A stretch of DNA of 38,839 nt from Candidatus Undinarchaeota archaeon (GCA_964567575.1 CAZMMZ010000010.1:1-38839), one strand, 5' to 3'. Counted from the first letter of the stretch, positions 3,199 to 38,839 are shown. Numbers and translations are program-made. Notes: generated by a model from the sequence alone, not told the origin.

Positions 3199-3206
3199 CT
3201 TAAATA
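3199..3206. promoter_or_regulatory. Single TATA-like element centred between two divergent start codons
   Basis: CTTAAATA on plus is 22 nt before ATG 3229. The same bases read TATTTAAG on minus, 23 nt before ATG 3175. Confidence 0.6.
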
Positions 3207-3228
3207 CTTTCTGAAGGAAGCTTCGAAC

Positions 3229-6969: not shown

Positions 6970-6970
6970 A

Positions 6971-9735: not shown

Positions 9736-9773
9736 TTTAGTAAATTTAAAGTCCTGATTTCATATTAAAAGAG

Positions 9774-10798: not shown

Positions 10799-10824
10799 TG
10801 TAAGAAAACTGTTTTGAAAACTGG

Positions 10825-10863
10825 TTATTAAGCTTATGATATAGTATTCATAACCTTAAAATA
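10825..10863. promoter_or_regulatory. Divergent promoter of the phosphonate genes
   Basis: TTATTAAG at 10825-10832 (CTTAATAA on minus) is 26 nt before ATG 10798. ATAAC-CTTAAAATA ending at 10863 is 23 nt before ATG 10887. Confidence 0.55.
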
Positions 10864-10886
10864 CCCAACTCAAACACCTTCTTTTT

Positions 10887-18499: not shown

Positions 18500-18501
18500 A
18501 C

Positions 18502-23130: not shown

Positions 23131-24022
23131 AAAAAGAGTGGTTTTCATAACAAGTATTCGCTGGGGAAAAGCGTGCCTAGAAAAAACCATAGAAAATAAT
23201 AATGCAGAAGTTGTTGCAATTTTCACAACAGAAAAACCTGAGAAATCAGCAGGATACGAACCTCTTGATGATATTGCAAAAAAACACAATATTCCTCTTT
23301 TCAAAATCAAACACATAAATAATGAAATAGAAAAAATAAGAGAACTTAAACCAGATTGGATTTTTGCTCTTGGATGGTCGCAGATTCTTTCTGAAGACTT
23401 TTTCAGTATTCCAACTGGAGGATTAATTGGTGGACATCCAACAATGCTTCCAAAAAACAGAGGACGAGCTCCACTAACTTGGGCAATAATCAAAGGTCTT
23501 GAAAAAACAGGATTCACTTTCTTCCATCTTGCAAAAGAAGTTGATGATGGAGATATTCTTGCACAAGAAGAAATAGAAATTGGACAAGATGATACTGTGA
23601 ATGATCTGTTAGACAAAGTCACAGAAACTGCAGGAAATCTTTTAGAAAAAACATTACCAGAACTTTTCTCAGAAAATCCACCACACATAAAGCAAAACCC
23701 AGAAGAGGCAACGTATTGGCCAAAGCGAACTCCAGAAGATGGAATTATAGATTGGAACAAAACAACAAAAGAACTTGATGCTTGGGTAAGAGCATTAACA
23801 AAACCATACCCTGGTGCTTTCACATTCTATAATGGGGAGAAAATAGTAATCTGGAAGGCAAGTTCAAAAGAATTAAAAGGGAATCCTGGAGAAATATTAG
23901 AAGAAAGTGATGGAAAAATAACTGTTGGAACAAAAGACAGTAGCATACAGATAGAAGAATATGAACCAGAAATAAATGCACAAATTCATAATCATTTTAA
24001 AAATGAGGTATTAGAAAAATGA
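23123..24022 (+). CDS. Formyltransferase (Fmt-like, probable sugar N-formyltransferase)
   Basis: GWSQIL, GGHPTMLPKNRGRAP, TGFTFF, EVDDGDI, KRTPEDGIIDW, VRALTKPYPGAF. GTG start overlaps the neuB end. Confidence 0.88.
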   Translation: MSKKRVVFITSIRWGKACLEKTIENNNAEVVAIFTTEKPEKSAGYEPLDDIAKKHNIPLFKIKHINNEIEKIRELKPDWIFALGWSQILSEDFFSIPTGGLIGGHPTMLPKNRGRAPLTWAIIKGLEKTGFTFFHLAKEVDDGDILAQEEIEIGQDDTVNDLLDKVTETAGNLLEKTLPELFSENPPHIKQNPEEATYWPKRTPEDGIIDWNKTTKELDAWVRALTKPYPGAFTFYNGEKIVIWKASSKELKGNPGEILEESDGKITVGTKDSSIQIEEYEPEINAQIHNHFKNEVLEK

Positions 24023-24672
24023 AAACATTAGTAATAGCCGCACATCCGGACGATGAAGTCCTTGGAATGGGAGGCACAATACAAAAACTTGCAGAAGATG
24101 GTGAAGTTTATCTTTGCATACTGACAGTTGGAACAGAAGAAGTATATGGAAAAGAAGTTCTTGCTGAAAAAAGAAAAGAATGTGAAACAGCAGCAGAACT
24201 TTTAGGTATAACGAAAGGGTTCTACTGCGAATTCCCAACATTAACATTAAATTCTATACCACAAGTAGAAATTAACAAAAAAATAGAGGACATAATTAAA
24301 GAAGTAGAACCAGAACAAGTGTTTACTCATTATTATGGAGACGTAAACAGAGATCACCAAGTTGCATTTAATTGTACACTTACTGCAACTAGACCGCTAT
24401 CGGCCCCTTCAGTAAAGAAAGTTGTTTGTTATGAAGTAATGTCAAGTTCAGAATGGGGAAACCCAGACAAAGGATTTATTCCAAATATGTTTGTTGATAT
24501 TAGCAAATATCTTGATAAAAAAATTGAAGCTCTAAAGATTTACAAAACAGAAGCTAAGGAAAATCCTAATCCAAGGTCACCGGAAAAAGTAAAAGTTTTT
24601 GCACAAAGCAGAGGTGGAATAATTGGTGTTGAAGCTGCTGAAACATTTAAAATTATAAGAGAAATAAAATGA
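24019..24672 (+). CDS. PIG-L/LmbE family N-deacetylase
   Basis: VIAAHPDDEVLGMGG, DVNRDHQ, YEVMSSSEW, KIEAL, AETF. Confidence 0.9.
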   Translation: MKTLVIAAHPDDEVLGMGGTIQKLAEDGEVYLCILTVGTEEVYGKEVLAEKRKECETAAELLGITKGFYCEFPTLTLNSIPQVEINKKIEDIIKEVEPEQVFTHYYGDVNRDHQVAFNCTLTATRPLSAPSVKKVVCYEVMSSSEWGNPDKGFIPNMFVDISKYLDKKIEALKIYKTEAKENPNPRSPEKVKVFAQSRGGIIGVEAAETFKIIREIK

Positions 24673-25847
24673 GAAAAATAGCTATTGTTACAGGAACAAG
24701 AGGAGAATACGGGATTTATACATCTGTGTTAGATGCAATTGACGCGCATCCTGACATTGAATATGAATTAATTGTTACCTGCATGCACCTTTCTGAACAA
24801 TTTGGTCACACTATTGATGAAATTAGAAAAGATGGAAGAAAGATTGGAGCAGAAGTTGATATGCTAAAATATCCAGACACTTTGGCAGGAATGTCAAAAA
24901 ATGCTGGAGTAGCAATTATTGGAATGACTGAAGCCATAGAAAAGATAAAGCCAGATATTGTTCTTGTTCTTGGAGATCGGGACGAGCAACTTGCAGGAGC
25001 AATTGCAGGCGCTCACATGAACATACCAGTTGCACACTTGCATGGTGGGGAAATGACTGGAACATTACTTGATGAAAACATACGACATGCAATAACAAAA
25101 TATTCTCACATTCACTTACCAGCTACTAAAAGAAGCGCAGAATACATTGAAAGAATGGGAGAACCAAAAGAAAATATAATTCTAGTTGGAGCAGCTGGAG
25201 TAGATTCTGTTAAAAGGAAAGGCAAGATGTCAAGAGAAGAACTTGCAAAGCGTTTTGATTTTGATCCTAATAAAAGAATAATTCTTTCACTGCAATATCC
25301 AGTTACAACACAGTATGAAGAAATGAAACAACAAATGGAAGAGGTTATGGATGCTTTGTTAGAACTTAATGAACAAACAGTTTATGTTTATTCAAATTCT
25401 GATGCTGGCCACACTGAAATGATGGAAGTGTTAGAAGAAAAAGTAGGAGCAACAGAAAATAAAATTAAAATTTTCAAATCATTATCATATGAAGTTTATT
25501 TGAGTTTAATGAAAACTGCAGATGTAATGATGGGAAATTCTAGTAGCGGTGTTCTTGAAGCACCATCTTGTGAAACTCCTTATGTGCTTATAGGAACACG
25601 ACAACAAGGACGTGAACAAGCTGCAAGCATACAAGAGATTCCTTGCAAGAAAGAGGATATTCTAAAAGCAGTTGACAAGGCACTGAATGATGAAGAGTTC
25701 AAAGAAATCATAAAGACATGTGAAAAACCATATGATCCCTTCAATGATGATAACTCGGGAAAAAGAATTGCAGAAGCGCTTGCAACATTTGATATTGAAA
25801 AACCGGAATTACTTCAGAAAAAACTTACATACCCATACTTAAAATGA
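24669..25847 (+). CDS. neuC: Hydrolysing UDP-N-acetylhexosamine 2-epimerase (NeuC/LegG family)
   Basis: GTRGEYG, MHLSEQFG, LGDRDE, HLHGGE, DENIRHAITK, GNSSSG, GTRQQGRE. Confidence 0.93.
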   Translation: MRKIAIVTGTRGEYGIYTSVLDAIDAHPDIEYELIVTCMHLSEQFGHTIDEIRKDGRKIGAEVDMLKYPDTLAGMSKNAGVAIIGMTEAIEKIKPDIVLVLGDRDEQLAGAIAGAHMNIPVAHLHGGEMTGTLLDENIRHAITKYSHIHLPATKRSAEYIERMGEPKENIILVGAAGVDSVKRKGKMSREELAKRFDFDPNKRIILSLQYPVTTQYEEMKQQMEEVMDALLELNEQTVYVYSNSDAGHTEMMEVLEEKVGATENKIKIFKSLSYEVYLSLMKTADVMMGNSSSGVLEAPSCETPYVLIGTRQQGREQAASIQEIPCKKEDILKAVDKALNDEEFKEIIKTCEKPYDPFNDDNSGKRIAEALATFDIEKPELLQKKLTYPYLK

Positions 25848-26464
25848 AAAAAATAATTATAATTGGAGCAGGAACAGGCGGAAAAGTAATCGCCGAGATG
25901 TTGAAACAGCAAGGCAGAGAACTTGTTGGTTTTGTTGATGATAATAAAGAAGGAGAAGTAGATGGAATTAACATAATTGGAAAAACAGATAATCTTTCAG
26001 AACTTGATGCAGATTCTTTTGTTATTGGAATTGGAATGAATTTGAAAGCACGAGACTTAGTTTTCAAAAAAGCAATTGACGCTGGACTTGAACCAGTTAA
26101 TGTTATAGATGAAAAAGCAATTATTGACAAAACTGCAAAGATTGGAAAAGGTAACATCATATTAGCAGGAAGTGTTATCGGACACTTTGCAAAAATTGGA
26201 GATAATTGTTTTATTTTTAGCAATAGTATAATCGAGCATAACTGCGAATTAGGAAATAATGTTCAACTTGCACCAGGAGCAAGTCTTGCAGGCTCAATAA
26301 AAATTGGAGATAATACTTTGATTGGAATTGGTGCAAATATTATTGAAGAAATAAAAATTGGAGAGAATTCAATAGTAGGCGCTGGTGCTGTTGTACTCAA
26401 TGATGTTCCAGATAATACAGTTGTTGCAGGAGTTCCTGCAAAAGAATTAAGAAAAAATGAGTGA
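25844..26464 (+). CDS. Hexapeptide-repeat acetyltransferase (NeuD/PglD/LegH family)
   Basis: IIGAGTGG, GFVDD, left-handed beta-helix repeats, IEHNC, VVAGVPAK. Confidence 0.92.
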   Translation: MKKIIIIGAGTGGKVIAEMLKQQGRELVGFVDDNKEGEVDGINIIGKTDNLSELDADSFVIGIGMNLKARDLVFKKAIDAGLEPVNVIDEKAIIDKTAKIGKGNIILAGSVIGHFAKIGDNCFIFSNSIIEHNCELGNNVQLAPGASLAGSIKIGDNTLIGIGANIIEEIKIGENSIVGAGAVVLNDVPDNTVVAGVPAKELRKNE

Positions 26465-27305
26465 AGAAACAAAACTAATGGAGGGAAGACTGTTGTCAAA
26501 AAAGATACTGGAAAGTCTAAAAGAGAAAATACAAGGATTTGAATCAAAACCTATTCTTTCTATTATTTTGTGTGGAGAGGATAAGGATTCTGTACTTTAT
26601 ACTAATATCAAAAAGAAAAGAGGAGAGGAAATAGGAATGCAAGTAGATATCCATAAAGTTTCTTCAGATGTAACACAAGAAAAATTAATTGAAACAATAA
26701 AAGAACTGAACAAAACATCAACTGGATTAATTGTTCAACTCCCACTCCCTTCAGAAATTAATGCAAATGAAATAGTAGAAGCAATTGATCCTGACAAAGA
26801 TGTTGATGGATTAACACCACTGAATTTTGGAAAAACCTTAACTGAAAAAGAAGAATTAGCATCAGCAACTCCAAAAGGAATTATCAAACTTTTAGAAGAA
26901 TATAATATTGAAATTAAAGGAAAAGAAGTAACAATTGTAAATAATAGTAACATTATTGGAAAACCACTAGCAATCATGATGGCTAATCGAGGAGCTACAG
27001 TTACAATTTGTCATAGTAAAACCAAAGACCTTGCTAAAAACACAAAGAATGCTGACATACTGATTACAGGTGTTGGAAAACCTGGATTAATAACTGGAGA
27101 TATGATAAAAGAAGATGCAGTTGTAATTGATGCTGGAATCGCTGAAAACGATGGGAAATGGAAAGGAGATGTTACTTTTGATGAAGTTAAAGAAAAAGTA
27201 AGTTACATTACACCAGTTCCTGGTGGAGTTGGTCCAATGACAGTTGCAATGCTTTTAGAAAATGTAGTAATTGCTTATGAACTTCAAAGGAATAAAAATG
27301 AATAA
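26457..27305 (+). CDS. folD: Bifunctional methylenetetrahydrofolate dehydrogenase/cyclohydrolase
   Basis: YTNIK (YxxxK), GLIVQLPLP, KDVDG, ATPKG, TICHSKT, IDAG, ITPVPGGVGPMT. Confidence 0.95.
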   Translation: MSEETKLMEGRLLSKKILESLKEKIQGFESKPILSIILCGEDKDSVLYTNIKKKRGEEIGMQVDIHKVSSDVTQEKLIETIKELNKTSTGLIVQLPLPSEINANEIVEAIDPDKDVDGLTPLNFGKTLTEKEELASATPKGIIKLLEEYNIEIKGKEVTIVNNSNIIGKPLAIMMANRGATVTICHSKTKDLAKNTKNADILITGVGKPGLITGDMIKEDAVVIDAGIAENDGKWKGDVTFDEVKEKVSYITPVPGGVGPMTVAMLLENVVIAYELQRNKNE

Positions 27306-28422
27306 GATACCACTTGCAAAACCGTATGTAGGCGATGAAGAAATCGCAGCAGTAACTGAAGTAATAAAATCAGGAATGTTAAGTCTTGGACCTAAACTAA
27401 AAGAATTTGAAACAAATTTTGCGCAACTGGTTGGAACAAAACATGCAATTGCTGTAAACTCTGGAACAAGCGGACTTCATCTTTGCCTTAAAGCAATTGG
27501 AATAAAACCAGGTGATGAAGTAATCACAGCGTCATTCTCTTTTGTTGCATCTTCAAACCCAATTATTTTCGAAGGAGCTACACCTATTTTTGTTGATATT
27601 GATGAAAAAACATACAACATGGATCCAGAGAAATTAAAGCAAGCAATTACAGAAAAAACAAAAGCAATTATTCCAGTTCACATGTTTGGACAACCATGTA
27701 ATATGGATGCAATTATGGAAATTGCTAATGAAAAAAACATCCCAGTTATAGAAGATGCTTGCGAAGCTCTTGAAGCAACATGGGATGGAAAGAAAGCTGG
27801 AACTTTTGGAAACTCAGCTGTTGTTGCATTTTATCCAAACAAACAAATGACAACAGGCGAAGGTGGAATAATTTTAACAGATGATGATAATGTTGCAGAA
27901 TTGTGTAAAAGCTATAGGAATCAAGGAAGAGATGAAAGTGGACAATGGCTTAACCACATTCGTATTGGATATAATTATCGGCTTGATGAAATGAGCTGTG
28001 CAATGGGTGTTGAACAACTGAAAAAAGTGGATTTCATAATAAATAAAAGGAAGGAAATTGCCGCTAAATATACAAAGAAACTGGAAGGAATAGAAGGTAT
28101 AATACTACCATATGTAGATCCAAAAGCAGATTCAACATGGTTCGTATATTCACTAAGAACTGCTGAGGGAATTAACAGAAACAAAATGGTTGAGTACCTA
28201 AATGAAAATGGGGTTGGATCAAAAGCCTACTTCTACCCACCAATTCACTTGCAACCAATTTACAAAGAAATGTTTGGTTCCAATGAAGGGGATTTCCCAG
28301 TTACAGAAAAAATAAGCAACACAGCTTTCATACTTCCGTTCTTCACAGAACTAACAGACGAACAAATAAACACTGTTTGCTCTGTTGTGGAAGAAGCAGT
28401 GAGGAAATGTAAAAATGACTGA
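27298..28422 (+). CDS. DegT/DnrJ/EryC1/StrS family sugar aminotransferase (LegC/PglE-like)
   Basis: NSGTSGLHL, AIIPVHMFG, IEDACEA, PLP-lysine motif FYPNKQMTTGEGG, GYNYR. Likely start is ATG 27298. Confidence 0.93.
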   Translation: MNKIPLAKPYVGDEEIAAVTEVIKSGMLSLGPKLKEFETNFAQLVGTKHAIAVNSGTSGLHLCLKAIGIKPGDEVITASFSFVASSNPIIFEGATPIFVDIDEKTYNMDPEKLKQAITEKTKAIIPVHMFGQPCNMDAIMEIANEKNIPVIEDACEALEATWDGKKAGTFGNSAVVAFYPNKQMTTGEGGIILTDDDNVAELCKSYRNQGRDESGQWLNHIRIGYNYRLDEMSCAMGVEQLKKVDFIINKRKEIAAKYTKKLEGIEGIILPYVDPKADSTWFVYSLRTAEGINRNKMVEYLNENGVGSKAYFYPPIHLQPIYKEMFGSNEGDFPVTEKISNTAFILPFFTELTDEQINTVCSVVEEAVRKCKND

Positions 28423-29443
28423 AACAGACTACAAAGGTAAAAGAATACTAATAACTGGCGGAACTGGATCCGTTGGAATGGCTCTTGCAAAGAAACTTGT
28501 TGAGAAGGGCGCTATTGATATTAGAATTTTAGATAATAATGAAAACGGACTTTTCAATGCAATGCAAGAATTAAAATCAGGTGGCCCTGTCAAATTCTTT
28601 GTTGGAGATGTAAAAGATAAAGAAAGAATTAGACGTGCTATGAATGGGGTTGATATTGTATTCCATTTAGCTGCATTGAAACATGTTTGGATCTGTGAAT
28701 ATAATCCATTTGAAGCTGTGAAATCAAATATTCAAGGAATTCAAAATGTTATAGATGTTGCAATGGAAGAAAATGTTGAAAAATTTATTTTCACAAGCAG
28801 TGACAAAGCAGTGAATCCAAGTAATGTTATGGGAACAACAAAACTTATGGGTGAAAAACTAACAACTGCTGCAGATTATTCCAGAGGACATACAAAAACT
28901 ATTTTCCTTTCAGTTAGATTTGGAAATATCCTTGGTTCAAGTGGTTCAGTTATACCAATTTTCCAAGAGCAAATCAAAAATAAAAAACCAGTAACTGTAA
29001 CTGATCCAAAGATGACACGGTTTGTTATATCCATGGATCAAGCTACAAACCTGATATTCAAAGCTGCAGACATTGCAAAGGGTGGAGAAGTTTTCATTTT
29101 GAAAATGGATTCAATTAATATCAAAGATCTTGCAGAAACAATGGTACAAGATATAACTTCAGGTAATGGGACAAAACCTGAAGAAATTGAAATTACAATC
29201 AATGAAGGTGGACCTGGAGAGAAATACCATGAAGACCTTATGACAGAGCAGGAGAATACTAGAGTTATGGAAACAGATGACATGTTTATTATAATTCCAG
29301 AAATAAAAGGGTTAGGAGAAACTGATACGTATGAATATGCAAATGCACAAAAATCAGATAAGAAATGCTACAACTCAGGAGACGTTACGCTGTTGTCAAA
29401 AGAAGAAATAAGCAAACTACTCAAAGAGGAAAAATTGATATGA
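28415..29443 (+). CDS. UDP-N-acetylglucosamine 4,6-dehydratase (PglF/CapD-type catalytic domain, soluble)
   Basis: GGTGSVG, AALKHV, SDKAVNPSNVMGTTK (MxxxK), VRFGNILGSSGSV, MTRF, PGEKYHE. Confidence 0.9.
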   Translation: MTETDYKGKRILITGGTGSVGMALAKKLVEKGAIDIRILDNNENGLFNAMQELKSGGPVKFFVGDVKDKERIRRAMNGVDIVFHLAALKHVWICEYNPFEAVKSNIQGIQNVIDVAMEENVEKFIFTSSDKAVNPSNVMGTTKLMGEKLTTAADYSRGHTKTIFLSVRFGNILGSSGSVIPIFQEQIKNKKPVTVTDPKMTRFVISMDQATNLIFKAADIAKGGEVFILKMDSINIKDLAETMVQDITSGNGTKPEEIEITINEGGPGEKYHEDLMTEQENTRVMETDDMFIIIPEIKGLGETDTYEYANAQKSDKKCYNSGDVTLLSKEEISKLLKEEKLI

Positions 29444-30372
29444 ATGTTCTTGTAACTGGTGGAGCTGGTTTTATTGGAAGGTGGGTTGTTAAAAAACTAC
29501 TTGATCGTGGAGATGAGGTTTTAGTTCTAGATGATTTATCAAATGGGCAAGAAGAAAACCTTGAAGAATTCAAAGGAAATAAAAATTTTAAAGGACTTGT
29601 GAAAGGAGATATTACAAACAAATCCGATATTGAAAAAGCATTTGAATTTTCACCAGAGTTGTGTATACACGCAGCAGCTCAGATAAATGTTCAAGATTCA
29701 ATTGACAATCCTGAAAAGAACAATCGTATAAACATAGAAGGAACTCTTAATATTTTAGATGAGGCAGTTAAACATCAAACAAAAGTTTGTTTGATTGGAA
29801 CTTGTATGGTTTATGACACAAGTGGAGAAAAACCAATAGGAGAGAACCATCCAATTAATACAGCATCACCTTATGCAGAATCAAAAGTACGAGCAGAAGA
29901 AGCTGCATTAGAATACTACAAAACACAGAATTTACCAGTAGTTGTTCTAAGACCATTCAATACTTACGGACCTTTCCAAAAAACGAATATGGAAGGGGGG
30001 GTTGTTTCAATCTTCCTAAATAAAGAACTCGATAATGAGGTTCTGAGTATTTACGGAGACGGCACACAGACCCGAGACTTATTGTATGTTGAAGATTGTG
30101 CTGATTTTATAATCAATGGTGCTTTTTCTGAAAAAGCTGTTGGCGAAGTAATTAATGCAGGAACTGGTAGCGATATTAGTGTAAATGACTTAGCCAAGAA
30201 GATTTGCAAAGACGAGAACAGAATAAAGCATATTGAACATCACCATCCGCAAGCAGAGATACAAAAACTAGTATGCGATCCTTCAAAAGCGACAAACCTT
30301 TTAGGATGGAAACCAAAAGTATCACTTGAGGAGGGGATTGAAAAAACCAAGGAATGGATAAAAAAAGAATAA
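29440..30372 (+). CDS. NAD-dependent epimerase/dehydratase (extended SDR)
   Basis: VTGGAGFIG, HAAAQINVQDS, GTCMVY, YAESK, LRPFNTYGP, QTRDLLYVED. Likely start is ATG 29440. Confidence 0.92.
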   Translation: MNVLVTGGAGFIGRWVVKKLLDRGDEVLVLDDLSNGQEENLEEFKGNKNFKGLVKGDITNKSDIEKAFEFSPELCIHAAAQINVQDSIDNPEKNNRINIEGTLNILDEAVKHQTKVCLIGTCMVYDTSGEKPIGENHPINTASPYAESKVRAEEAALEYYKTQNLPVVVLRPFNTYGPFQKTNMEGGVVSIFLNKELDNEVLSIYGDGTQTRDLLYVEDCADFIINGAFSEKAVGEVINAGTGSDISVNDLAKKICKDENRIKHIEHHHPQAEIQKLVCDPSKATNLLGWKPKVSLEEGIEKTKEWIKKE

Positions 30373-31823
30373 TAGGTTTGCAGATTATATTTTCTTATTT
30401 AATGCTAGGTCTGCAAATAGTAACAGCGCCAATCCTCATAGTATTACTAACTAAATTTTTAACAGTAGCAGAGTATGGTGTTTTTTCTTTGTTTACTGCT
30501 TTTGTTTCAATAAGTTTCTTACTTTTACAATTTGGAATATTCCAGTATTTTTTAACAAAGATACCTGGAAAAGAAAGAGATGATAGACTTAATACATTCT
30601 TACCAATTATTATAATTCACACTATATTCCTTGTAATAATTTTCAGCTTATTTTATTTCAGCAAACTATCAAATATTTTCTTAACTTTTAATAATCTTAC
30701 AGCTTATTCAAAAGAATTTTCTCTTTGTTTGGTTTTAGTAGTATTCTATACAACAAGTAAACTCTTTGATGCATATTTCCAAGCAAAAAAGAAAATCAAT
30801 ACTGCAAATTTTATAGATTTTGTTAGAAACAAAGGATGGGTTGTTCTGATTCCAATTTTGATTTTCTTGAATAAAGTAACATTATTCAATATCCTGTTGG
30901 TTTGGGGAATTGGCATCTTTTTGATATTAGTATTCTATGGCACGAGCTTGCTTGGAGAACTCAAAAAAGTAACTGCATTAAAATTCAATTTTGATCCTAT
31001 ACGCAAAGCAATAAAATTTGGATTGCCATTAATAGCTACTAGTTTGTTTGGATGGATAATTTCCTCAAGTGACAGATACATTTTGAATTACTACATAGAT
31101 ACTGCTTCTGTAGGAATCTATAACTTAGCTTATTCAATAGTTGGCATCATCTTTACAGTTGGAGTGGCAGGAAGCATAGTGGTTATGCCATACTTTGCAG
31201 AAGAATGGAATAAAAAAGGAGATTATAATTGGTTACTGAATTTCTCATTGAAATATGGTTTATGTATTGTATTGCCAGGGATAATTGCAATATCTTTCTT
31301 ACGAGAAGAAGTAATTCTTTTAATTTCAAATATAAATTACATGGCAGCAGCACCAATAATACCGATATTAGCTATCTTCCCTCTCTTTGCATTATTAAAT
31401 GCAATTTTCCAACAACCATTGTTAGTATCAGACAAAACAAAAAAGATTGCAGGAGTATATTTTGTAGGGGCTATTTTGAACGCAGCACTGAATTTAATGT
31501 TAATTCCTAAATATGGAATAAAAAGCGCGGCAATAACTACAGGAATAAGTTATTTCGCAATGGCAGTATTAACAATAATATTTACACGCAAACTAGTAAA
31601 AATTGACTTTGGATTTTTGAGATTAGGTAGAGTGCTTGGTTCAGGAATAGTGATGGGTTTTGTTATATGGCAATTGAAAATATTTTTGAATTTGCATTTA
31701 CTTGTTTTGGTTGGTGTTGGAGGCTTAGTGTACTTAGCACTGTTGTTTGTAACAAGAGCCGTTGAAGTAGAAGAAATAAAAGAAGTTTTGAAAAGGAAAA
31801 AAGAAGATCAAGTAGTGCTATAA
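30354..31823 (+). CDS. Wzx/MurJ-like (PST/MOP) oligosaccharide flippase
   Basis: Strongly hydrophobic multi-pass protein, EYGVFSL, DRYILNYY...VGIYNLAY, NLMLIPKYGIKSAA. Confidence 0.88.
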   Translation: MDKKRIIGLQIIFSYLMLGLQIVTAPILIVLLTKFLTVAEYGVFSLFTAFVSISFLLLQFGIFQYFLTKIPGKERDDRLNTFLPIIIIHTIFLVIIFSLFYFSKLSNIFLTFNNLTAYSKEFSLCLVLVVFYTTSKLFDAYFQAKKKINTANFIDFVRNKGWVVLIPILIFLNKVTLFNILLVWGIGIFLILVFYGTSLLGELKKVTALKFNFDPIRKAIKFGLPLIATSLFGWIISSSDRYILNYYIDTASVGIYNLAYSIVGIIFTVGVAGSIVVMPYFAEEWNKKGDYNWLLNFSLKYGLCIVLPGIIAISFLREEVILLISNINYMAAAPIIPILAIFPLFALLNAIFQQPLLVSDKTKKIAGVYFVGAILNAALNLMLIPKYGIKSAAITTGISYFAMAVLTIIFTRKLVKIDFGFLRLGRVLGSGIVMGFVIWQLKIFLNLHLLVLVGVGGLVYLALLFVTRAVEVEEIKEVLKRKKEDQVVL

Positions 31824-33403
31824 GTTAAAACAAAAAGATCTGTTATTTTTTCACCATGAGACATAAAGGAAGATGATGTGTCACTTACAAAAGTTAGTTC
31901 ATCAGATAAACATTCTTTAAATGGTGAGACGTCTTGATTATCTAATGCATCTCTATGAAGTATAACTGAAATTTTATCAACATTAGAAGGAATTTTGTTT
32001 AAGAAAGAGCAATCATTCAAAGGTTTCATACCCTCATCTGTATAATCCTTAAAGGATATGAGCTCTGAATTAGGAACAACACCTGGTAAAAGATAATATT
32101 TAGAATCCCCTGTGTAGCTATAGTCCAGATTAAAAACATAAACAGCTGGATATATGAGAATAATACTATCCTCATCATCAACTATAGATTCTGAAACAGC
32201 TTCCCAATTTTCCCAATCAGGTCTTTCATTATAATAGGAATAAAGAGAAACTGAATTGAATAACAGAATTAAAATAACAAAAAGCAAAATGATGTTACGT
32301 GGAGAAAATATTTTTGAGAATTTATCAAAGCGTTTAGAGAAAAGAACTATTCCAACAGATATTAAAATATAAAGTAACGGTGAAATAAAAAGAATAAATC
32401 GAGCATAGATGTGTGGTGGTATTATTTTAAAAAACCAAAGAAAAGAAAAGATAAGTGTTGGAACAGAAATTAAAATACATAAGAAAGAAGCGCGACTATC
32501 TTTTATTTTCTTCAGTACTGAAGAGAATGTTATAAAAAAAGTACAGCAGATAAGAGCAAATAATAAAATAAAGAAAGGACTTGAGAAATTTACCTTAAGA
32601 TAACCAGCACTTAGGTGATAAAACATTAATCCAACTCGAACAAATATATTATTGATATTCAAACCAAAACCAAGATCGTGCAGCGGTTCACTTGCTAATG
32701 CTTCCTGTTCTATATTAGTTTTAATAGACATTTGGCCATAAAACATTGGAACAAGTGGTAGAACTAAAACTCCAACTAAAATAAAAAGAAGAAATGTCCT
32801 TAAGAAAATTTGTTTATATTTTTTATAAAAAACTAAAAGGAAAATAAATTCAGCAAGAATTATTAAAAAAGAATAATAATGAAGATACATGCAAATCGCA
32901 GATAAACCTATCCAGAACGCACCGGTTTTCTTAGAAGGTGTATCAAGATAAGAAATGAAATAATAAAGTGATAATGTAACAAAAAAAGTAAGAATACTAT
33001 ATTGTTTGAGTGTTTGAGCATATCTAATATTTGCTTGAGACATTGCAAATATGAAAGAACTCATTAAACCAATTTTATCATTAAATAATTTTTTCCCAAG
33101 TAGAAAACCAATAGGAATCGTAGCTATACTAAAAAGACATGGAAGAAGTCTAAGGAAAAATTTACTAATTCCCCCTATTTTTATCCAGACATTTAAGAGT
33201 AGATAATATAAAGGCGGATGCACATCTCCACTTATTGAATCCCAATAATGTGAAACAGTATCTCCTGCTACAAAAATTGCTCCCCCTTCATCACCGCGAA
33301 TACTTCCAGCACTTAATTGAAAAACACGAAACGCAGAACCAATAAGAATGAAAATTAGTATTAATTGAAAATTCCGATTTTTGATAATACTTTTGAAATT
33401 CAT
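31808..33403 (-). CDS. GT-C fold membrane glycosyltransferase (GT39/PMT_2/ArnT-like)
   Basis: RVFQL..SIRGDEG, DVHPPLYYLLL, LRLLPCLFS, HYYSFLII, many TM helices, soluble C-terminal domain. Likely start is ATG 33403. Confidence 0.82.
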   Translation of the reverse strand: MNFKSIIKNRNFQLILIFILIGSAFRVFQLSAGSIRGDEGGAIFVAGDTVSHYWDSISGDVHPPLYYLLLNVWIKIGGISKFFLRLLPCLFSIATIPIGFLLGKKLFNDKIGLMSSFIFAMSQANIRYAQTLKQYSILTFFVTLSLYYFISYLDTPSKKTGAFWIGLSAICMYLHYYSFLIILAEFIFLLVFYKKYKQIFLRTFLLFILVGVLVLPLVPMFYGQMSIKTNIEQEALASEPLHDLGFGLNINNIFVRVGLMFYHLSAGYLKVNFSSPFFILLFALICCTFFITFSSVLKKIKDSRASFLCILISVPTLIFSFLWFFKIIPPHIYARFILFISPLLYILISVGIVLFSKRFDKFSKIFSPRNIILLFVILILLFNSVSLYSYYNERPDWENWEAVSESIVDDEDSIILIYPAVYVFNLDYSYTGDSKYYLLPGVVPNSELISFKDYTDEGMKPLNDCSFLNKIPSNVDKISVILHRDALDNQDVSPFKECLSDELTFVSDTSSSFMSHGEKITDLFVLTYSTT

Positions 33404-33404
33404 A

Positions 33405-34376
33405 TTAATCCCTAGCTGAGAGTAAGAACTCATTCTCTAGTAAGAATTTTGTAGTTTTGGCAATCCCTTCTTCAATTGTAACTTCCGGTTTCCAATTGAG
33501 TCCTCGGATTTTGTCAGTTGCAAGTTGAACCGTTGGTGCATCGCCAATCCATCCTTTTGCTCCACCAGTAAAGTTGAAGGTTACATCTGTTAAACCCATT
33601 TCTTTGATTATAATATTAGCAACATCTTTGACATTCATGTACTCAACATTACCAAGGTTGAAGATGTTTACTTTTTCATCTGCTTTTTCAATAGCAGTCA
33701 ACATAGCATTAACGCAATCTCCAATATACAAATAAGATTTCTTTTGCTCGCCATCTCCAAGAATCTCAAGCTCTTTTGGATTTTTCTTTAACTTTTTTAC
33801 AAAATCAAAAACAACTCCATGAGTATATCGCTCTCCAATTAAAGAAACAAATCGGAAAATCCATGATTTCATTTCAAATGCTTCGCAGAAAGCTTGGATC
33901 ATTGCTTCGCCTGCAAGTTTTGAAGCACCATACATTGAAGTTTGAATTGGACAATAATCTTCTGGTGTTGGATAAACAGTTGGTTCTCCATACATTGCAG
34001 AAGTTGAGGAAAATGCAATACCCTTTACATTATTCAACCGCATTGCTTCCAGAACATTCCAAGTACCAATTGTATTTTGTTCCAAATCAATTCGAGTATT
34101 AGTAATACCACCTCGAACATCAGCATTAGCTGATAAATGGAATACAAAATCGTGACCTTGCATAGCAGTCTTCAATGCATCTAAATCACAAATATCTCCA
34201 TTAACAAAATTAAACTTAGAATTTTCTTTTGCGTTTTTCAAAAAAACATCTTGACCGGTTTTCAAATTATCATAAACAGTAACTTCACAGCCAAGCTCTA
34301 ACAATTTGTCAGAAAGATGACTACCAACGAATCCGGCTCCGCCAGTTATGAAAACTTTTTTCTTAATTATATCCAT
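33405..34376 (-). CDS. NAD-dependent nucleotide-sugar epimerase (extended SDR)
   Basis: ITGGAGFVG, FHLSANADVR, SSTSAMYG, YGASK, GDGEQKKSYL. Likely start is ATG 34376. Confidence 0.92.
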   Translation of the reverse strand: MDIIKKKVFITGGAGFVGSHLSDKLLELGCEVTVYDNLKTGQDVFLKNAKENSKFNFVNGDICDLDALKTAMQGHDFVFHLSANADVRGGITNTRIDLEQNTIGTWNVLEAMRLNNVKGIAFSSTSAMYGEPTVYPTPEDYCPIQTSMYGASKLAGEAMIQAFCEAFEMKSWIFRFVSLIGERYTHGVVFDFVKKLKKNPKELEILGDGEQKKSYLYIGDCVNAMLTAIEKADEKVNIFNLGNVEYMNVKDVANIIIKEMGLTDVTFNFTGGAKGWIGDAPTVQLATDKIRGLNWKPEVTIEEGIAKTTKFLLENEFLLSARD

Positions 34377-34377
34377 T

Positions 34378-35118
34378 TTAGTTTTTCTTTCCTTTTGGAA
34401 AGTTGACCTCCATCCAAACCCAAACAAGTTCTTTACAAACATCAAGAATTGTTAATGGACTTAGAAGACCATTTACAACTTCGTATAATGGTTCTCCCGC
34501 GCCCCTATTAAAGTGTTGGACGCCAACAGATTTAATTTTATATCCTTTCTTTTTTGCTTTTATTAACATCTCTGTTGTGACTGTTCCGTATCTTGAATGT
34601 AAATTCAAATCTTCAACAACTTTTTTCTTTACAAGACGGAATGCTGTATTAACATCCCATAATTTCATTCGGAAGAAAACTCTAATTAAAAAATTATAAC
34701 TAAAAGAAATTATTTTACGAAGGAACGGATCATTTCGTTTTAATTTGTACCCAGCAATAATATCATAATCATTTATGTACGGCAAGAACTTTTCGAAATC
34801 ATTCAAATCAAATTGATTATCTGAATCTGAATAAAAGATGTTTTCATAGATTGCAGATTTCAAACCAATTCGATACGCCTTGCCAATACCATGATCATCT
34901 TTTTTCTGAATAATAATCCGGATATTCGAATCCTTTTTCATATGCTGGTGTATAATTTCTCTTGTCCGATCGGTAGATCCTTCGTAAAGTACAATTATAA
35001 TTTCATAATTCTTTGCATGCTTTTTCAAAACACTTTGAGCATCTTCAATAACTTTTGCAATATTCCCCTCTTCATTATACGCAGGGAAAAACATTGAAAT
35101 GTTATACTTTTCAGTCAT
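34378..35118 (-). CDS. GT2 polyprenol-phosphate glycosyltransferase (DPM1-like)
   Basis: FFPAYNEEGNI, GSTDRT, GIGKAYRIG, DSDNQF, DVNTAFRL, EMLIKA, HFNRGAG. The usual VDDGS reads LYEGS. Confidence 0.85.
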   Translation of the reverse strand: MTEKYNISMFFPAYNEEGNIAKVIEDAQSVLKKHAKNYEIIIVLYEGSTDRTREIIHQHMKKDSNIRIIIQKKDDHGIGKAYRIGLKSAIYENIFYSDSDNQFDLNDFEKFLPYINDYDIIAGYKLKRNDPFLRKIISFSYNFLIRVFFRMKLWDVNTAFRLVKKKVVEDLNLHSRYGTVTTEMLIKAKKKGYKIKSVGVQHFNRGAGEPLYEVVNGLLSPLTILDVCKELVWVWMEVNFPKGKKN

Positions 35119-35120
35119 GC

Positions 35121-35774
35121 TTATTTGTGCTTCTTTTTGTAATCTTCCCAGAAGTCTAAGAACTCTTGAATTGTTTCTTTGGTTCGGGCGTGCACATGCA
35201 TCTTGTTTAAGATGGCTGGAGGGATTGTAATAATGTGTGCTCCTGCGCGCATTGAATACATTGCATCTGCAACTGAACGGATACTTCCAGAAATAATCTT
35301 AGCTTCGAAGCCAGATCTTTCAAACAAATCAACAGCATCGCTCATTTCGTAAATAGCATCATATCCCATGTCTCCGATTCTTCCGTAGAAAAGTGAAACA
35401 TAAGTTGCTCCAGCTTTTGCAGCTAGAACTGCTTGACTTGAACTCATGCAGCAAGTAACATTTGTTTTAATTCCTTTTTCCTTGCAGATTTTTGTAGCTT
35501 TGAGACCATTTGCATCCATTGGGATTTTAACAACAACATTGTCTCCCCAAGTGGCATATTCAACAGCTTCCTTAACCATTTCGTCAACATCTATTGTAGT
35601 GACCTCAATACTTACTGGGCCTTTGACAATCTTGAGGATTTCCTTCATTCTTGTCTCAAATTCGCAACCTTCCTTTGCAACAATTGCAGGGTTGGTTGTA
35701 CAACCATCAATGATTCCCATATCAATGGCATTCTGAATTTCTTCTAAATTTGCAGTGTCTATGTATATATCCAT
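35121..35774 (-). CDS. tal: Transaldolase (small TalC/FSA-like subfamily)
   Basis: IDTAN, TTNP, SIEV (Glu, transaldolase-type), Schiff-base VVKIP, FYGR (Phe, transaldolase-type), SIR. Confidence 0.9.
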   Translation of the reverse strand: MDIYIDTANLEEIQNAIDMGIIDGCTTNPAIVAKEGCEFETRMKEILKIVKGPVSIEVTTIDVDEMVKEAVEYATWGDNVVVKIPMDANGLKATKICKEKGIKTNVTCCMSSSQAVLAAKAGATYVSLFYGRIGDMGYDAIYEMSDAVDLFERSGFEAKIISGSIRSVADAMYSMRAGAHIITIPPAILNKMHVHARTKETIQEFLDFWEDYKKKHK

Positions 35775-35775
35775 T

Positions 35776-36378
35776 TTATTTTTCCTCTATGTTTTTGATT
35801 ATTAATGCAGCCTCATATAAATCCTTAACCTTGTGGTCAGGATTGTTTGGCTTTTCTGTAATTAAATCACTATGAGTTTCGAGCATTGGATGCTCTACTT
35901 TGATTGTGGTGCAGCCTAGCGAATTTCCAACTTTAATATCTCGCCAGCTATCTCCAATCATGTATGAGTTTTTCAAATCAATGTCAAACTTTTCTTTTGC
36001 TTGCAGAAACATTCCTTGTCCTGGTTTTCTGCAATCGCAGATTTTTGTAAACTCAGGAACTTTTCCTTTACCAGGTTCTGAATGTGGGCAATAATAAACA
36101 CCATCCACATTTGCACCCCGAACTTCAAGATCTTTTATCATTTTTTCGTGGATTTGCTCCACAAGTTCAACAGTTGTTTTTGCTTTTGCAATTGCAGGTT
36201 GATTTGTAACCACAATTGCGAGGAATCCAAGATCATTAATGATTTTGATTCCATCAGCTGCTTTTGGAAGCAGTTTGAATTCCTCTGGTTTCAGAGGACT
36301 GTCAATGTAATTTTTCTCAGTAATGTAAACAGGTTCGTTTATTGTACTATCTCTGTCAATGAAAACTGCGCGATTCAT
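35776..36378 (-). CDS. gmhB: D-glycero-D-manno-heptose-1,7-bisphosphate phosphatase (HAD-IIIA)
   Basis: FIDRDSTI, VVTNQ, zinc motif CPH...CDCRKP, YMIGDSWRD. Confidence 0.9.
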   Translation of the reverse strand: MNRAVFIDRDSTINEPVYITEKNYIDSPLKPEEFKLLPKAADGIKIINDLGFLAIVVTNQPAIAKAKTTVELVEQIHEKMIKDLEVRGANVDGVYYCPHSEPGKGKVPEFTKICDCRKPGQGMFLQAKEKFDIDLKNSYMIGDSWRDIKVGNSLGCTTIKVEHPMLETHSDLITEKPNNPDHKVKDLYEAALIIKNIEEK

Positions 36379-36977
36379 CCTTCGTTCTCAATCTTCTCCT
36401 TGAGTAAGTTTGCAATCAAATGCTCAACTGCAACATGAAGTGATTCTGTGTGAGGTGTGCTTTCAACAGGCACAACAATACAATGATCTGCCATTTGTTT
36501 CATTGCTCCACCATCGAATCCTGCAATACCGATTGCAACTCCACCATTATCTTTTGCATATTGTAATCCTTTGAGTAGGTTTTGTGACCATGCTCCAGCC
36601 TTGTCGCTTCCTGAACCACCGTGAACACTGTAAGCAATTACAACATCCCCAGATTCAAAGAAGTTCTTGAGCTGTTCAACATAAATCTCTCCCCAGCCAT
36701 CATCATTTGTAAGTGCACTTACAAGTGGAATATTGTCAACAAGTGCAGTTGCTTTGAATCGCTTTTTTCCTTCAACAATTGTGCATTTGTTCAAGTCGCA
36801 CATCATGTGTGTTGCTGTGCTAGCTGAGCCACCGTTTCCGATTATGAAAACACGATTTCCATTTTGCCATGCTTTGAAGAGCGCGTCTACTACAGCGCTG
36901 ACTTCCTCAACAGGTATCTTTCCAATTACTTCTTGCATTTCAGAAAAGTACTTCTGAATATACTCTATATTGTCCAT
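36375..36977 (-). CDS. SIS-domain phosphosugar isomerase, divergent GmhA paralogue
   Basis: IGNGGSASTATHMMCDL, SALTNDDG, SVHGG in place of STSG, HTESLH in place of RIQExH. Start at 36977 (ATG) or 36986 (TTG). Confidence 0.82.
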   Translation of the reverse strand: MDNIEYIQKYFSEMQEVIGKIPVEEVSAVVDALFKAWQNGNRVFIIGNGGSASTATHMMCDLNKCTIVEGKKRFKATALVDNIPLVSALTNDDGWGEIYVEQLKNFFESGDVVIAYSVHGGSGSDKAGAWSQNLLKGLQYAKDNGGVAIGIAGFDGGAMKQMADHCIVVPVESTPHTESLHVAVEHLIANLLKEKIENEG

Positions 36978-37031
36978 TATTATCAAAAAAAATGTCAGGA
37001 AAAGTAGTTTTAAAGGTTATGGATTTTAGTG

Positions 37032-37997
37032 TCAGTTAGCTTTGTAGAGCTCTGAAACAACTTTAAAATTCCCATATGCATCTTCAATTGAACTCATAAC
37101 TTCGCGCTTTTCTTTGATTGCTGTTGAGAATTCTTGGTACTCTTTCTTCCAAGAGTCATCTTCATCCCAGCTCCACTCTTGTTTGTCTGGAATTCCCATT
37201 TCTGGTTTCATTTTCCAAAACGTTAATGTCTCTTTACCGTAGCTTTTGCCAAGCCCATTAATTAAAAGCAAACCAGTTTTGCAATGAATTTCAAAACTGA
37301 ATAAATTCTTCCATTGTGTGCAGGATGCAGTTAGGAATGCAACTTTTCCAGAATCGTTTTTCAAAATTGCAAAACCATTATCCTCCACAGGCATATCCCA
37401 GAAGAAAGTTCCAATATGACCTTGAACATCTGTGAAGTTTCCACAGAACCATCGTGCCAAATCAATTAAGTGAGTTCCTTGATCAAGCATCTCTCCACCG
37501 CCAGATTTTTGCGGATCTGCACGCCACTCTTTTTCATATCCAAGTCGACCACCGTGTCCATATCTTCCGCGCACATACATCACTTCACCAATTTCTCCAG
37601 AATCAACAATTTCTCTGGCTTTCAAAAATGAAGGATGGAATCTATGATTATAACCAATCTTAACTGTAACACCATTTGTCTTAGCAATATTCATCATGCG
37701 CTCGTATTCATCAATTGTTCGCGCACCTGGCTTTTCAATAAGACAATGTTTGCCATTATTCATTGCATCAATTGCAATTTCTGCAAGAAATTGATTTGTA
37801 GTTGCAATAATAACAACTTCAACTTCAGAATTTTGCATAACTTCGTGAGAATCTGTTGTGAATTTGCAATTGTGTTTCTCAGAAAGTTCTTTGGCTCGCT
37901 GTTCATTAACATCGGCTACTATAACAAGCTCATCTTCCCCTAAGAAATCCGCCCGCCTGCTGCCGATTAAACCGCAGCCAATTATACCAACTTTCAT
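37032..37997 (-). CDS. Gfo/Idh/MocA family oxidoreductase
   Basis: IIGCGLIG, CLIEKP, GYNHRF, GGEMLDQGTHLID, VEDN. Confidence 0.92.
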   Translation of the reverse strand: MKVGIIGCGLIGSRRADFLGEDELVIVADVNEQRAKELSEKHNCKFTTDSHEVMQNSEVEVVIIATTNQFLAEIAIDAMNNGKHCLIEKPGARTIDEYERMMNIAKTNGVTVKIGYNHRFHPSFLKAREIVDSGEIGEVMYVRGRYGHGGRLGYEKEWRADPQKSGGGEMLDQGTHLIDLARWFCGNFTDVQGHIGTFFWDMPVEDNGFAILKNDSGKVAFLTASCTQWKNLFSFEIHCKTGLLLINGLGKSYGKETLTFWKMKPEMGIPDKQEWSWDEDDSWKKEYQEFSTAIKEKREVMSSIEDAYGNFKVVSELYKAN

Positions 37998-38752
37998 TTA
38001 TTTAGATTCTCCAAAAGACGCTCATCAATACGTCTTAGAGCATACATATCAGAATCTGAAGTTTCAGAAGTCCATTCTTCATAATTATCTTTGATGTGAA
38101 TGAACTTTCCAGTGATTCCATTTGATTTTTCAGAAACAAGGAATAAAATAAGTTTAACAACATCTTCTGGATTTGCCCACTCTGAAGGATGCTCATCAAC
38201 TTTTTCCTTGTCCCAGAGTTTTGTCTTGTGCGCGCCAGGAGCTATAACATTAATATCAGTATTTTTGAGTTCTTGTGAAAGTTCTTCTGTGAAACGAACA
38301 ACGCCTGCTTTTGAAGTTGCATACGCAGAATGTAATGGCCTTGCAAATGCAGCACCACCACCAGAAACGTTTATGATTTTTCCAGGATTAGATTGCTCTA
38401 ATTTACTAGTTGCTGCTTTGCAGCAATTCACAGTTCCGAAAAGATTTACATTAACAACTTGTTCCCAATCACTTACACTTGAATTTGAAAGTGGTTCAGT
38501 TGGTCCGAGAATTCCAGCGCAGTTTACAAGAACATCAATTTGTGGAAGTTCTTTGAAGAATTTTTCAATTGAAAGATAATCAGTAACATTGCATGCAAAG
38601 AATTTTGTATTCTCTCCGATTTCTTTTGCAGCTTGCTCAAGAGCTTCCCCGTGTCGTGCAACAAGAACTACTTGGAAATCAGTATCATGCAACGCTTTTG
38701 CAATGATCTTTCCAATACCCCCTGTTCCACCTGTAACTATTGCTGTTTTCAT
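37994..38752 (-). CDS. Classical short-chain dehydrogenase/reductase
   Basis: VTGGTGGIG, VNCAG, NVSGGGA, YATSK. Confidence 0.92.
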   Translation of the reverse strand: MKTAIVTGGTGGIGKIIAKALHDTDFQVVLVARHGEALEQAAKEIGENTKFFACNVTDYLSIEKFFKELPQIDVLVNCAGILGPTEPLSNSSVSDWEQVVNVNLFGTVNCCKAATSKLEQSNPGKIINVSGGGAAFARPLHSAYATSKAGVVRFTEELSQELKNTDINVIAPGAHKTKLWDKEKVDEHPSEWANPEDVVKLILFLVSEKSNGITGKFIHIKDNYEEWTSETSDSDMYALRRIDERLLENLNK

Positions 38753-38839
38753 TTAAACATTCACCAACACTTTTGAACCGTGGAAATCAAATCCGAATCG
38801 AACTTCACTTAAACCTTGTTTCTCCATTGCAGTTCTTAA
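38753..38839 (-). CDS. C-terminal fragment of an upstream gene, probably a GHMP-family sugar kinase (HddA-like)
   Basis: The minus frame from the window edge reads LRTAMEKQGLSEVRFGFDFHGSKVLVNV*, with the stop directly abutting the SDR start. The F-x-F-D-x-x-G-S tail resembles HddA/galactokinase-type C-termini as I recall them; only 28 residues are visible. Confidence 0.5.
   Translation of the reverse strand, partial: LRTAMEKQGLSEVRFGFDFHGSKVLVNV

Follow-up and report, generated by a model that had tools for sequence, protein, structure and literature searches.

The window analysed here is a 38,839-nucleotide stretch of DNA that makes up an entire contig (C10) in the 745-kb, 18-contig genome of a Candidatus Undinarchaeota (DPANN) archaeon, estimated to be 82% complete (GCA_964567575.1 CAZMMZ010000010.1:1-38839; genome G000). 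The feature under study, at 33405-38839 on the minus strand, is the 3' two-thirds of a glycan operon that continues onto a second contig, C1. Judged by sequence comparison, the core of this operon is a conserved, laterally spread cassette, and three of its enzymes, a transaldolase (termed TAL*), a GmhA-like isomerase (SIS*), and a GHMP kinase, represent subfamilies apart from the housekeeping transaldolase, GmhA, and the kinases of transaldolase-less heptose cassettes, respectively. We regard the chances as about even that the cassette makes a nucleotide-activated octose, as in lincomycin biosynthesis. No description of this cassette was found among the papers of the literature library searched, and searches on transaldolase within heptose glycan clusters and on Undinarchaeota glycosylation returned nothing relevant.

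TAL* (35121-35774, minus strand) is a short transaldolase (PF00923) in which Asp6, Glu57, Lys83, Thr107, and Phe129 align with the equivalent residues of the Thermotoga, Bacillus, and Thermoplasma transaldolases; the Glu and Phe had already been recognised as transaldolase-type in a reading of the window made from the sequence alone (hereafter the sequence-only reading). Beside the catalytic Phe and the phosphate-binding residues, otherwise near-invariant positions are altered: cassette transaldolases read T-[CA]-x-M, S-[LI]-F-[YFW]-x-R-I, and G-S-[IV]-R, where canonical transaldolases instead have T-L-x-F (T-L-x-F-S), S-P-F-[VI]-G-R-L-D-D, and A-S-[IV]-R. The motifs common to all SIS*-linked transaldolases are S-[LI]-F-[YFWL], T-x-x-M, and G-S-[IV]-R. 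These changes are shared by 17 further metagenome transaldolases that adjoin a cassette isomerase and are only 30-56% identical to the TAL* of the window. In a maximum-likelihood tree, a single branch separates the 19 isomerase-linked transaldolases from the others (support 95/83, rising to 97/95 when one long branch is left out). Scores against TIGR00875 (cut-off 246 bits) are 223 bits for the window enzyme and 220, 195, 201, and 90 bits for other TAL* copies, vs. 297 and 313 bits for two transketolase-linked transaldolases. Identification of TAL* as an FSA-type aldolase was rejected, given the retention of the transaldolase-type Glu and Phe.

The genomic setting of TAL* likewise differs from that of the canonical enzyme. 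Among 40 relatives, which are metagenome-assembled genomes (MAGs; 75-98% complete, in which non-detection does not equal absence), 18 of the 25 transaldolase matches adjoin a transketolase with no cassette gene nearby. The transaldolase lies inside the cassette in the window's genome and in the two other genomes of its genus (G001 and G002), and a genome from another family of the same order (G004) has one cassette copy as well as one transketolase-linked canonical copy. Seven of 251 sampled Omnitrophota genomes carry the cassette isomerase (at least 48% identity); a TAL*-motif gene stands beside SIS*, within ~600 nt, in all seven, and a canonical or PGI-fused transaldolase is encoded elsewhere in six of them. 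Overall, a dedicated transaldolase is linked to cassette genes in G001, G002, G004, 17 metagenome loci, and the seven Omnitrophota genomes. In one Omnitrophota case (G095:C18:48914-49357; loci L217 and L219), the TAL* adjacent to SIS* matches the family in two pieces and may be frameshifted or split.

A canonical transaldolase was not found in the three MAGs of the present genus, and a PF00923 search of the window's genome found no transaldolase besides TAL*; the site beside the split transketolase on contig C4 of this genome is assembled, with no transaldolase there. The canonical enzyme has apparently been lost in this genus, where TAL* probably also serves the pentose phosphate pathway. The genome encodes two transketolases: a one-piece enzyme near the AglB genes (C1:10311-11996), 58-67% identical to enzymes of distant relatives, and the split enzyme usual for the order (C4:30776-32708), which lacks the transaldolase that follows it in relatives. 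Because of its distinct clade and motifs, its linkage to SIS*, and its coexistence with canonical copies, TAL* is, on these comparisons, not a housekeeping enzyme that has drifted into a glycan operon. By its own account, the sequence-only reading would fall if this were the genome's sole housekeeping transaldolase; it is the sole transaldolase detected, but it belongs to a cassette-specific subfamily rather than to the housekeeping type, which makes that condition too simple. The same reading offered a local supply of sedoheptulose-7-phosphate as the simpler account, which makes a poor general explanation because TAL* coexists with a canonical copy in G004 and in six of the seven Omnitrophota genomes.

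SIS* (36375-36986, minus strand; probable ATG start at 36977) is a GmhA-like ketose-phosphate isomerase that scores 86 bits against TIGR00441 (cut-off 209 bits), in keeping with its earlier description as divergent. Relative to solved GmhA proteins and to the canonical GmhA encoded in the same window, it has nine extra residues in the S-T-S-x-x-S loop, which reads S-V-H-G-G-S-G-S-D-K-A-G-A-W-S. In the Mycobacterium tuberculosis enzyme, the serines and threonine of this loop are assigned to the C7 phosphate, and their mutation lowers activity (PMC7705670). At the positions of the catalytic Glu-Gln-His triad of GmhA (PMC4697000), SIS* has Asp for Glu and Glu for Gln, and keeps the His. A 6-phospho-3-hexuloisomerase identity was considered and rejected, as that family gave no match and all best matches were to GmhA.

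The loop insertion and the transaldolase occur together. A metagenome scan with four SIS* seeds returned 58 loci, which do not count as independent events (two are near-duplicates). Thirty-five loci bear the insertion (47-85% identity), and a transaldolase is present in the fetched DNA of 17 of these, including 10 of the 12 that have at least 5 kb on both flanks; among the 23 loci lacking the insertion (32-42% identity), there is a transaldolase in none. SIS* comprises more than 120 protein clusters at ≥60% identity, none of them characterised; the few that carry a taxonomic name are from Omnitrophota, Planctomycetota, Micrarchaeota, and other archaea. A search of the ESM Atlas with SIS* recovered generic "SIS domain" clusters only.

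The kinase, a short-chain dehydrogenase/reductase (SDR), a Gfo/Idh/MocA oxidoreductase (Gfo), the isomerase, the HAD phosphatase, the transaldolase, the epimerase, and the nucleotidyltransferase are encoded together in G001, G002, and G004, at 40-85% identity. A sister family (G003, G007, and G010) has a simpler set that comprises the nucleotidyltransferase, the kinase, the isomerase, the epimerase, and the flippase-like protein, and a phosphatase is encoded close by; these simple cassettes yielded no transaldolase, Gfo, or SDR. In a bacterial version of the cassette (L155), the gene order is UDP-glucose/GDP-mannose-dehydrogenase-family protein, SDR, epimerase, nucleotidyltransferase, kinase, SIS*, phosphatase, Gfo, TAL*, GT2, and DegT aminotransferase; the first and last of these belong to bacterial versions such as this one and are not found in the archaeal operon. 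A distant relative from the same phylum (G013:C29; L132, 4980-9836) encodes, in a row, a split transketolase, a transaldolase with canonical motifs, a GmhB-like phosphatase, and a plain SIS protein, and could represent an intermediate arrangement.

Partner enzymes differ in how closely their trees follow cassette type, with the plain-cassette groups being small (5-12 rows). In the kinase tree, insertion-type cassettes form one clade (22 of 23; SH-aLRT 100) apart from the plain-cassette kinases. The phosphatase tree is also clustered by cassette type (2 changes; 0 of 500 shuffles as low), the nucleotidyltransferase tree less so (3 changes), and the epimerase tree is unclustered (4 changes; 163 of 500 shuffles as low), with the epimerase of the window grouping with those of plain cassettes. 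Because the enzymes that bind the phosphorylated far end of the substrate track cassette type, whereas the ring-acting epimerase does not, this pattern would fit substrates that differ at that end.

The operon itself is compact. Between 31808 and 38839, all long open reading frames (ORFs) are on the minus strand and are separated by gaps or overlaps of ≤54 nt, as expected of a single tight operon. C10 ends with the same 55 bases with which C1 begins, and a frame that is open across the join encodes a 326-residue GHMP kinase. The identical gene order runs unbroken through this region both in G002, which is of the same genus, and in L151, a metagenome contig, so we take the join to be correct. 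Moving upstream of the kinase, C1 encodes a 771-residue nucleotidyltransferase-B12-radical S-adenosylmethionine (SAM) protein, a flippase-like protein, two STT3/AglB oligosaccharyltransferases, TruD, PTH2, and a transketolase. The order of the operon is two AglB/STT3, flippase-like protein, nucleotidyltransferase-B12 radical SAM fusion, GHMP kinase, SDR, Gfo, SIS*, GmhB-like phosphatase, TAL*, GT2, GalE-like epimerase, and GT-C. The host is an archaeon, given the presence of AglB, PTH2, TruD, and mevalonate-type GHMP kinases. All genes named in the sequence-only reading (kinase, SDR, Gfo, SIS isomerase, GmhB, transaldolase, and SDR epimerase) are present and on the minus strand; it overlooked the GT2 gene (34378-35118) and the GT-C gene (31808-33433), the latter beyond the stretch it described. 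It had also placed the nucleotidyltransferase outside the window and pointed past position 38839 for the kinase and an HddC/LmbO-like gene, and both are indeed on C1, the contig that overlaps the end of the window by 55 bp.

The nucleotidyltransferase is fused, within a protein of 771 residues (C1:1001-3316), to a B12-binding domain (PF02310, residues 299-424) and a radical SAM domain (PF04055, residues 496-658); its HddC-type score is 112 bits (cut-off 300 bits). The CxxxCxxC cysteines of the radical SAM domain (C500, C504, and C507) are invariant in 22 homologues. The linker (residues ~236-250) is cysteine-rich (C-T-G-C-S-K-S-G-I-C) and could bind a metal or cluster. The fusion is present in the window's genome, in G002 (92% identical), in L151, and in two further database clusters (P0002 and P0003); the fused form occurs in only three protein clusters (P0001-P0003, one of them partial), all from this archaeal group. 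The other listed homologues of the radical SAM part are stand-alone proteins or other fusions with ≤60% identity, the closest stand-alone ones (P0004-P0025) being 58-60% identical. In G001, the nucleotidyltransferase is alone (67% identical) at the same position, and neither G001 nor G004 has an orthologous radical SAM gene, so the radical SAM domain is a recent addition to the cassette.

Radical SAM relatives with solved structures are only distant (AprD4, 9CCB, TokK, and OxsB). A scan of the genome collection with the radical SAM domain recovered a large family, rich in paralogues, whose members occur in varied glycan contexts and not in heptose cassettes in particular. The closest homologue in that collection (51% identical), from a Chloroflexi MAG, is unfused and lies in a row of genes for a UDP-glucose dehydrogenase, an NTP_transferase protein, the radical SAM protein, a methyltransferase, and a PMT_2 protein, in that order, and in a Nanoarchaeota MAG a cytidylyltransferase-like gene is directly upstream of the radical SAM homologue. 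Because of this repeated pairing with nucleotidyltransferases, the sequence contexts suggest that these radical SAM enzymes use substrates bound to a nucleotide. Members of the B12 radical SAM class most commonly catalyse methylation, and the fused domain probably C-methylates a nucleotide-bound sugar, as judged from family membership.

For octose synthesis, we propose that TAL* would transfer a three-carbon unit from fructose-6-phosphate or sedoheptulose-7-phosphate to an aldose phosphate, most likely ribose-5-phosphate, to give octulose-8-phosphate in the manner of LmbR. SIS* would convert this ketose phosphate to the aldose phosphate, the GHMP kinase would phosphorylate C1, the HAD phosphatase would remove the distal phosphate, and the nucleotidyltransferase domain would generate the nucleoside diphosphate (NDP)-sugar. 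In this genus, the fused B12 radical SAM domain may then modify the nucleotide-bound sugar, probably by C-methylation, while Gfo, SDR, and the epimerase would reset the stereochemistry of the ring. The GT2 enzyme is predicted to load the sugar onto dolichyl phosphate, the flippase-like protein to turn it outward, and GT-C to add it to an N-glycan or surface protein near the AglB system. A broader proposal is that TAL* and SIS* constitute a widespread, unrecognised NDP-octose route for surface glycans, with the octose of the present genus being C-methylated to a nine-carbon sugar that passes via dolichyl phosphate onto N-glycans, and with TAL* covering the pentose phosphate role; in this full form, we consider the proposal unlikely.

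Several observations weigh against octose synthesis and against the chemistry proposed for the fusion. The canonical transaldolase product is sedoheptulose-7-phosphate, and TAL* retains all the catalytic transaldolase residues; as the only transaldolase found in the three genomes of the genus, it probably still performs the ordinary reaction. Octoses are not known from the cell-surface glycans of archaea or bacteria. Among the long SIS* loci, two (L161 and L170) have no transaldolase within 10 kb. The single GmhB-like phosphatase of the genome presumably also serves the ADP-heptose route and accepts heptose bisphosphate. The co-divergence of the cassette enzymes may reflect their inheritance as a unit rather than a new substrate. 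The likeness to the lincosamide pathway, LmbR and LmbN included, is at the level of enzyme families only. For the fusion, C-methylation is a prediction from family membership, and the best family match is NF038361 (Sden_1168/PhpK-type P-methyltransferase; 313 bits, cut-off 575 bits).

The cassette could instead make a modified NDP-heptose, for which TAL* supplies sedoheptulose-7-phosphate, SIS* gives a non-manno configuration at C2 (e.g., gluco), the epimerase together with Gfo and SDR leads to, for example, D-glycero-D-galacto-heptose, and, in this genus, the radical SAM domain methylates the product. This is a possible outcome, if a somewhat doubtful one. It accommodates the best family matches of the cassette proteins (GmhA, HddA, GmhB, and HddC), the intact catalytic residues of TAL*, the status of TAL* as the only transaldolase found in the genus (g1), hence its probably ordinary activity, and a phosphatase apparently shared with the ADP-heptose route. 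Prokaryotic surface glycans are known to contain heptoses, whereas octoses are not known from them, and a second isomerase beside GmhA is familiar from bacteria that run both heptose routes. What a modified heptose leaves unexplained is a second, motif-altered transaldolase tied to SIS* where a canonical one already exists, and an isomerase that is free of the insertion in heptose-type cassettes that lack the transaldolase; moreover, five core enzymes all score under the curated equivalog cut-offs. It is improbable, to our minds, that the substrate of TAL* and SIS* is a different phosphorylated ketose, such as a deoxy, amino, or C9 sugar phosphate, with an acceptor prepared by Gfo and SDR and a product that is neither a plain heptose nor an octose of the lincosamide type: Gfo, SDR1, and TAL* do appear jointly in the cassettes of G000-G002 and G004 vs. 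the simpler ones of G003, G007, and G010, and members of the transaldolase family with changed substrates exist (e.g., sulfofructose transaldolase, 8BC3), but there is no positive evidence for a particular alternative substrate, and the closest solved relatives of Gfo target hydroxyl groups on the rings of glycosides rather than acyclic aldose phosphates. The notion of a housekeeping pentose phosphate transaldolase that sits in a glycan operon by chance draws on TAL* being the sole PF00923 match in a genome with transketolase genes on C1 and C4; it is largely refuted and highly implausible, because this clade and motif class occurs only beside SIS* in bacteria and archaea, usually with a separate canonical copy, because the usual site by the split transketolase on C4 is assembled without a transaldolase, and because G004 has both kinds.

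The remaining enzymes of the operon are consistent with nucleotide sugar synthesis and export. The HddA/LmbP-like GHMP kinase has its last 28 codons at 38756-38839 (minus strand) and its other 298 codons at C1:1-949; the C1 portion contains GHMP_kinases_N and GHMP_kinases_C, there is a full-length 326-aa match in the contiguous locus of G002, and the best NCBIfam match is HddA (180 bits, cut-off 600 bits). It is followed, on the same strand as all genes of this part of the operon, by a classical SDR (SDR1; 37994-38752; 252 aa; adh_short, 161 bits) paired with Gfo (37032-37997; 321 aa; assigned from Pfam domains), and the SDR-Gfo pair recurs in G001, G002, G004, L161, L170, and L183. The closest solved structures to Gfo are sugar 3-dehydrogenases (DgpA, levoglucosan dehydrogenase, glucuronide 3-dehydrogenase, and KijD10), and a Gfo gene is found in most SIS* metagenome loci. 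The GmhB/LmbK-like HAD-IIIA sugar-bisphosphate phosphatase (35776-36378; PRK08942, 137 bits, cut-off 178 bits) carries the DxD and the CxH...CxC (Zn-site) motifs.

Downstream of TAL*, the minus strand encodes GT2 (34378-35118; 246 aa; Glycos_transf_2), of the polyprenyl/dolichyl-phosphate sugar synthase type, for which NCBIfam ranks dolichyl-phosphate hexose transferase and ArnC highest, both well under cut-off. Next is a GalE-like extended-SDR NDP-sugar 4-epimerase (33405-34445; probable true start at ATG 34376), which matches Archaeoglobus GalE-1 (3EHE) with an E value of 3e-90 and occurs in both cassette types. The last gene of the operon (31808-33433) encodes the GT-C enzyme, a PMT_2-family membrane glycosyltransferase (PMT_2, 39.7 bits; weak Agl23 match) that holds the same position in G001 and G002 and probably uses a lipid-linked sugar outside the membrane. 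On C1, the flippase-like membrane protein (C1:3365-4333) matches TIGR00374 (LPG_synthase_TM type) with 114 bits (cut-off 43 bits).

The remainder of the window is a glycan island. A canonical, bacterial-type ADP-heptose set (5068-8116, plus strand) is encoded in this archaeon by GmhA (5068-5616; 184-188 bits), the HldE kinase domain (5516-6514; 333 bits), the HldE adenylyltransferase (6511-6969; 203 bits, above cut-off), and a GT9 heptosyltransferase (6971-8116); the kinase and adenylyltransferase genes are separate, and the set has no GmhB of its own. The two GmhA-type isomerases of the genome are ~28-31% identical, and with the query used there was no second GmhB-like gene in the genome, the sole copy being that of the TAL* operon. 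Just upstream of the ADP-heptose genes is a homologue of FemX-like aminoacyl/peptidyl-transferases (4067-5020, plus strand), preceded by an ORF (3190-4077) with no match in NCBIfam.

A phosphonate cluster (8113-15598) encodes a phosphoenolpyruvate mutase fused to a nucleoside triphosphate (NTP) transferase, a split phosphonopyruvate-decarboxylase-like thiamine pyrophosphate enzyme, an iron-containing alcohol dehydrogenase, an NTP transferase, a B12 radical SAM protein, a CDP-alcohol phosphatidyltransferase, and a methyltransferase; its radical SAM protein is only 28% identical to the fused one and forms with the NTP transferase a separate pair of this kind. At 17519-20058 (plus strand), the gene for a radical SAM/SPASM protein precedes that for a fused HisF-HisH-like protein of the imidazole glycerol phosphate synthase type, which may be an amidotransferase for an acetamidino sugar. 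A nonulosonic acid pathway (21342-31823, plus strand) comprises NeuB, a hydrolysing 2-epimerase, a PglD-like acetyltransferase, DegT, a PseB-like dehydratase, and a CMP-sugar-synthetase-like ORF; it includes a formyltransferase, FolD, and a PIG-L deacetylase, suggesting an N-formylated sugar, and ends in a Wzx-type flippase gene that is convergent with the TAL* operon.

Eight-carbon aldoses are, to our knowledge, known in nature almost only from lincosamide antibiotics. If the cassette does make an octose, octoses would be common building blocks of microbial surfaces, spanning DPANN archaea, Candidate Phyla Radiation (CPR) bacteria, Omnitrophota, Planctomycetota, and Chloroflexota, and primary glycan metabolism would look like the source from which the antibiotic pathway was recruited. 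Even with a heptose as its product, the cassette marks out new subfamilies of transaldolase and GmhA, each with a simple sequence signature; at present, both TAL* and SIS* are labelled as housekeeping enzymes by annotation pipelines. In addition, the nucleotidyltransferase-B12 radical SAM fusion provides a specific candidate enzyme for radical chemistry that acts on a nucleotide sugar.

Among characterised systems, the fusion is most readily compared with the class B radical SAM methyltransferases, which include Fom3 (with the Fom1 cytidylyltransferase domain), GenK, and PhpK/Sden_1168. A B12-binding domain and a CxxxCxxC core are likewise present here, and the coupling to a nucleotidyltransferase recalls Fom1/Fom3, although the protein scores under every family cut-off (PhpK/Sden_1168, Fom3, GenK, and TokK). 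No description was found of a fusion with the sugar-1-phosphate nucleotidyltransferase of a heptose or octose cassette, and a literature search on Sden_1168 returned nothing relevant. The export genes resemble lipid-carrier decoration systems (GtrA/B/C, ArnC/E-F/T, and Haloferax AglD/AglR/AglS), in that GT2, the flippase-like protein, and GT-C are encoded with sugar-nucleotide genes, here beside two AglB; the differences are that the flippase-like protein is of the LPG_synthase_TM/TIGR00374 type and that the sugar is predicted to be C7 or C8, rather than glucose, aminoarabinose, or mannose.

The four families of the GmhA/HddA/GmhB/HddC heptose pathway are the best family-level matches for the corresponding proteins of the cassette. 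Unlike the cassette, that pathway needs no transaldolase, Gfo, or SDR; furthermore, the scores given above for these four families are far under cut-off (gmhA 86/209, HddA 180/600, GmhB 137/178, and HddC 112/300 bits), and the phosphate loop of the isomerase is remodelled. Heptose-type cassettes of a simpler kind, with no transaldolase and no insertion, are found in G003, G007, G010, and 23 metagenome loci.

The closest parallel is the GDP-octose pathway of the lincosamide producers Streptomyces lincolnensis and S. caelestis, for which enzyme classes have been listed for LmbR, N, P, K, O, M, L, Z, and S (PMC4351081). PDB searches with the cassette proteins recovered no structure of an Lmb sugar enzyme. 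The likeness to the lincosamide genes noted in the sequence-only reading is real, and is strengthened by the kinase and the HddC/LmbO-like nucleotidyltransferase on C1, while remaining a family-level match: the short transaldolase, GmhA-like isomerase, GHMP kinase, HAD phosphatase, nucleotidyltransferase, epimerase, and Gfo correspond class for class. In the bacterial cassettes, the added UDP-glucose-dehydrogenase-family and DegT proteins complete the list of classes. The transaldolase of lincosamide producers is additional to a housekeeping copy, as it is in G004 and six of the seven Omnitrophota genomes, but TAL* is the only transaldolase found in the present genus. The setting also differs, being a surface-glycan locus of an archaeon and of many uncultured bacteria rather than an antibiotic cluster. 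The archaeal operon has neither an aminotransferase nor an LmbL-like gene; it has instead a classical SDR, the fused B12 radical SAM domain, and an exit route by lipid carrier that comprises GT2, the flippase-like protein, and GT-C.

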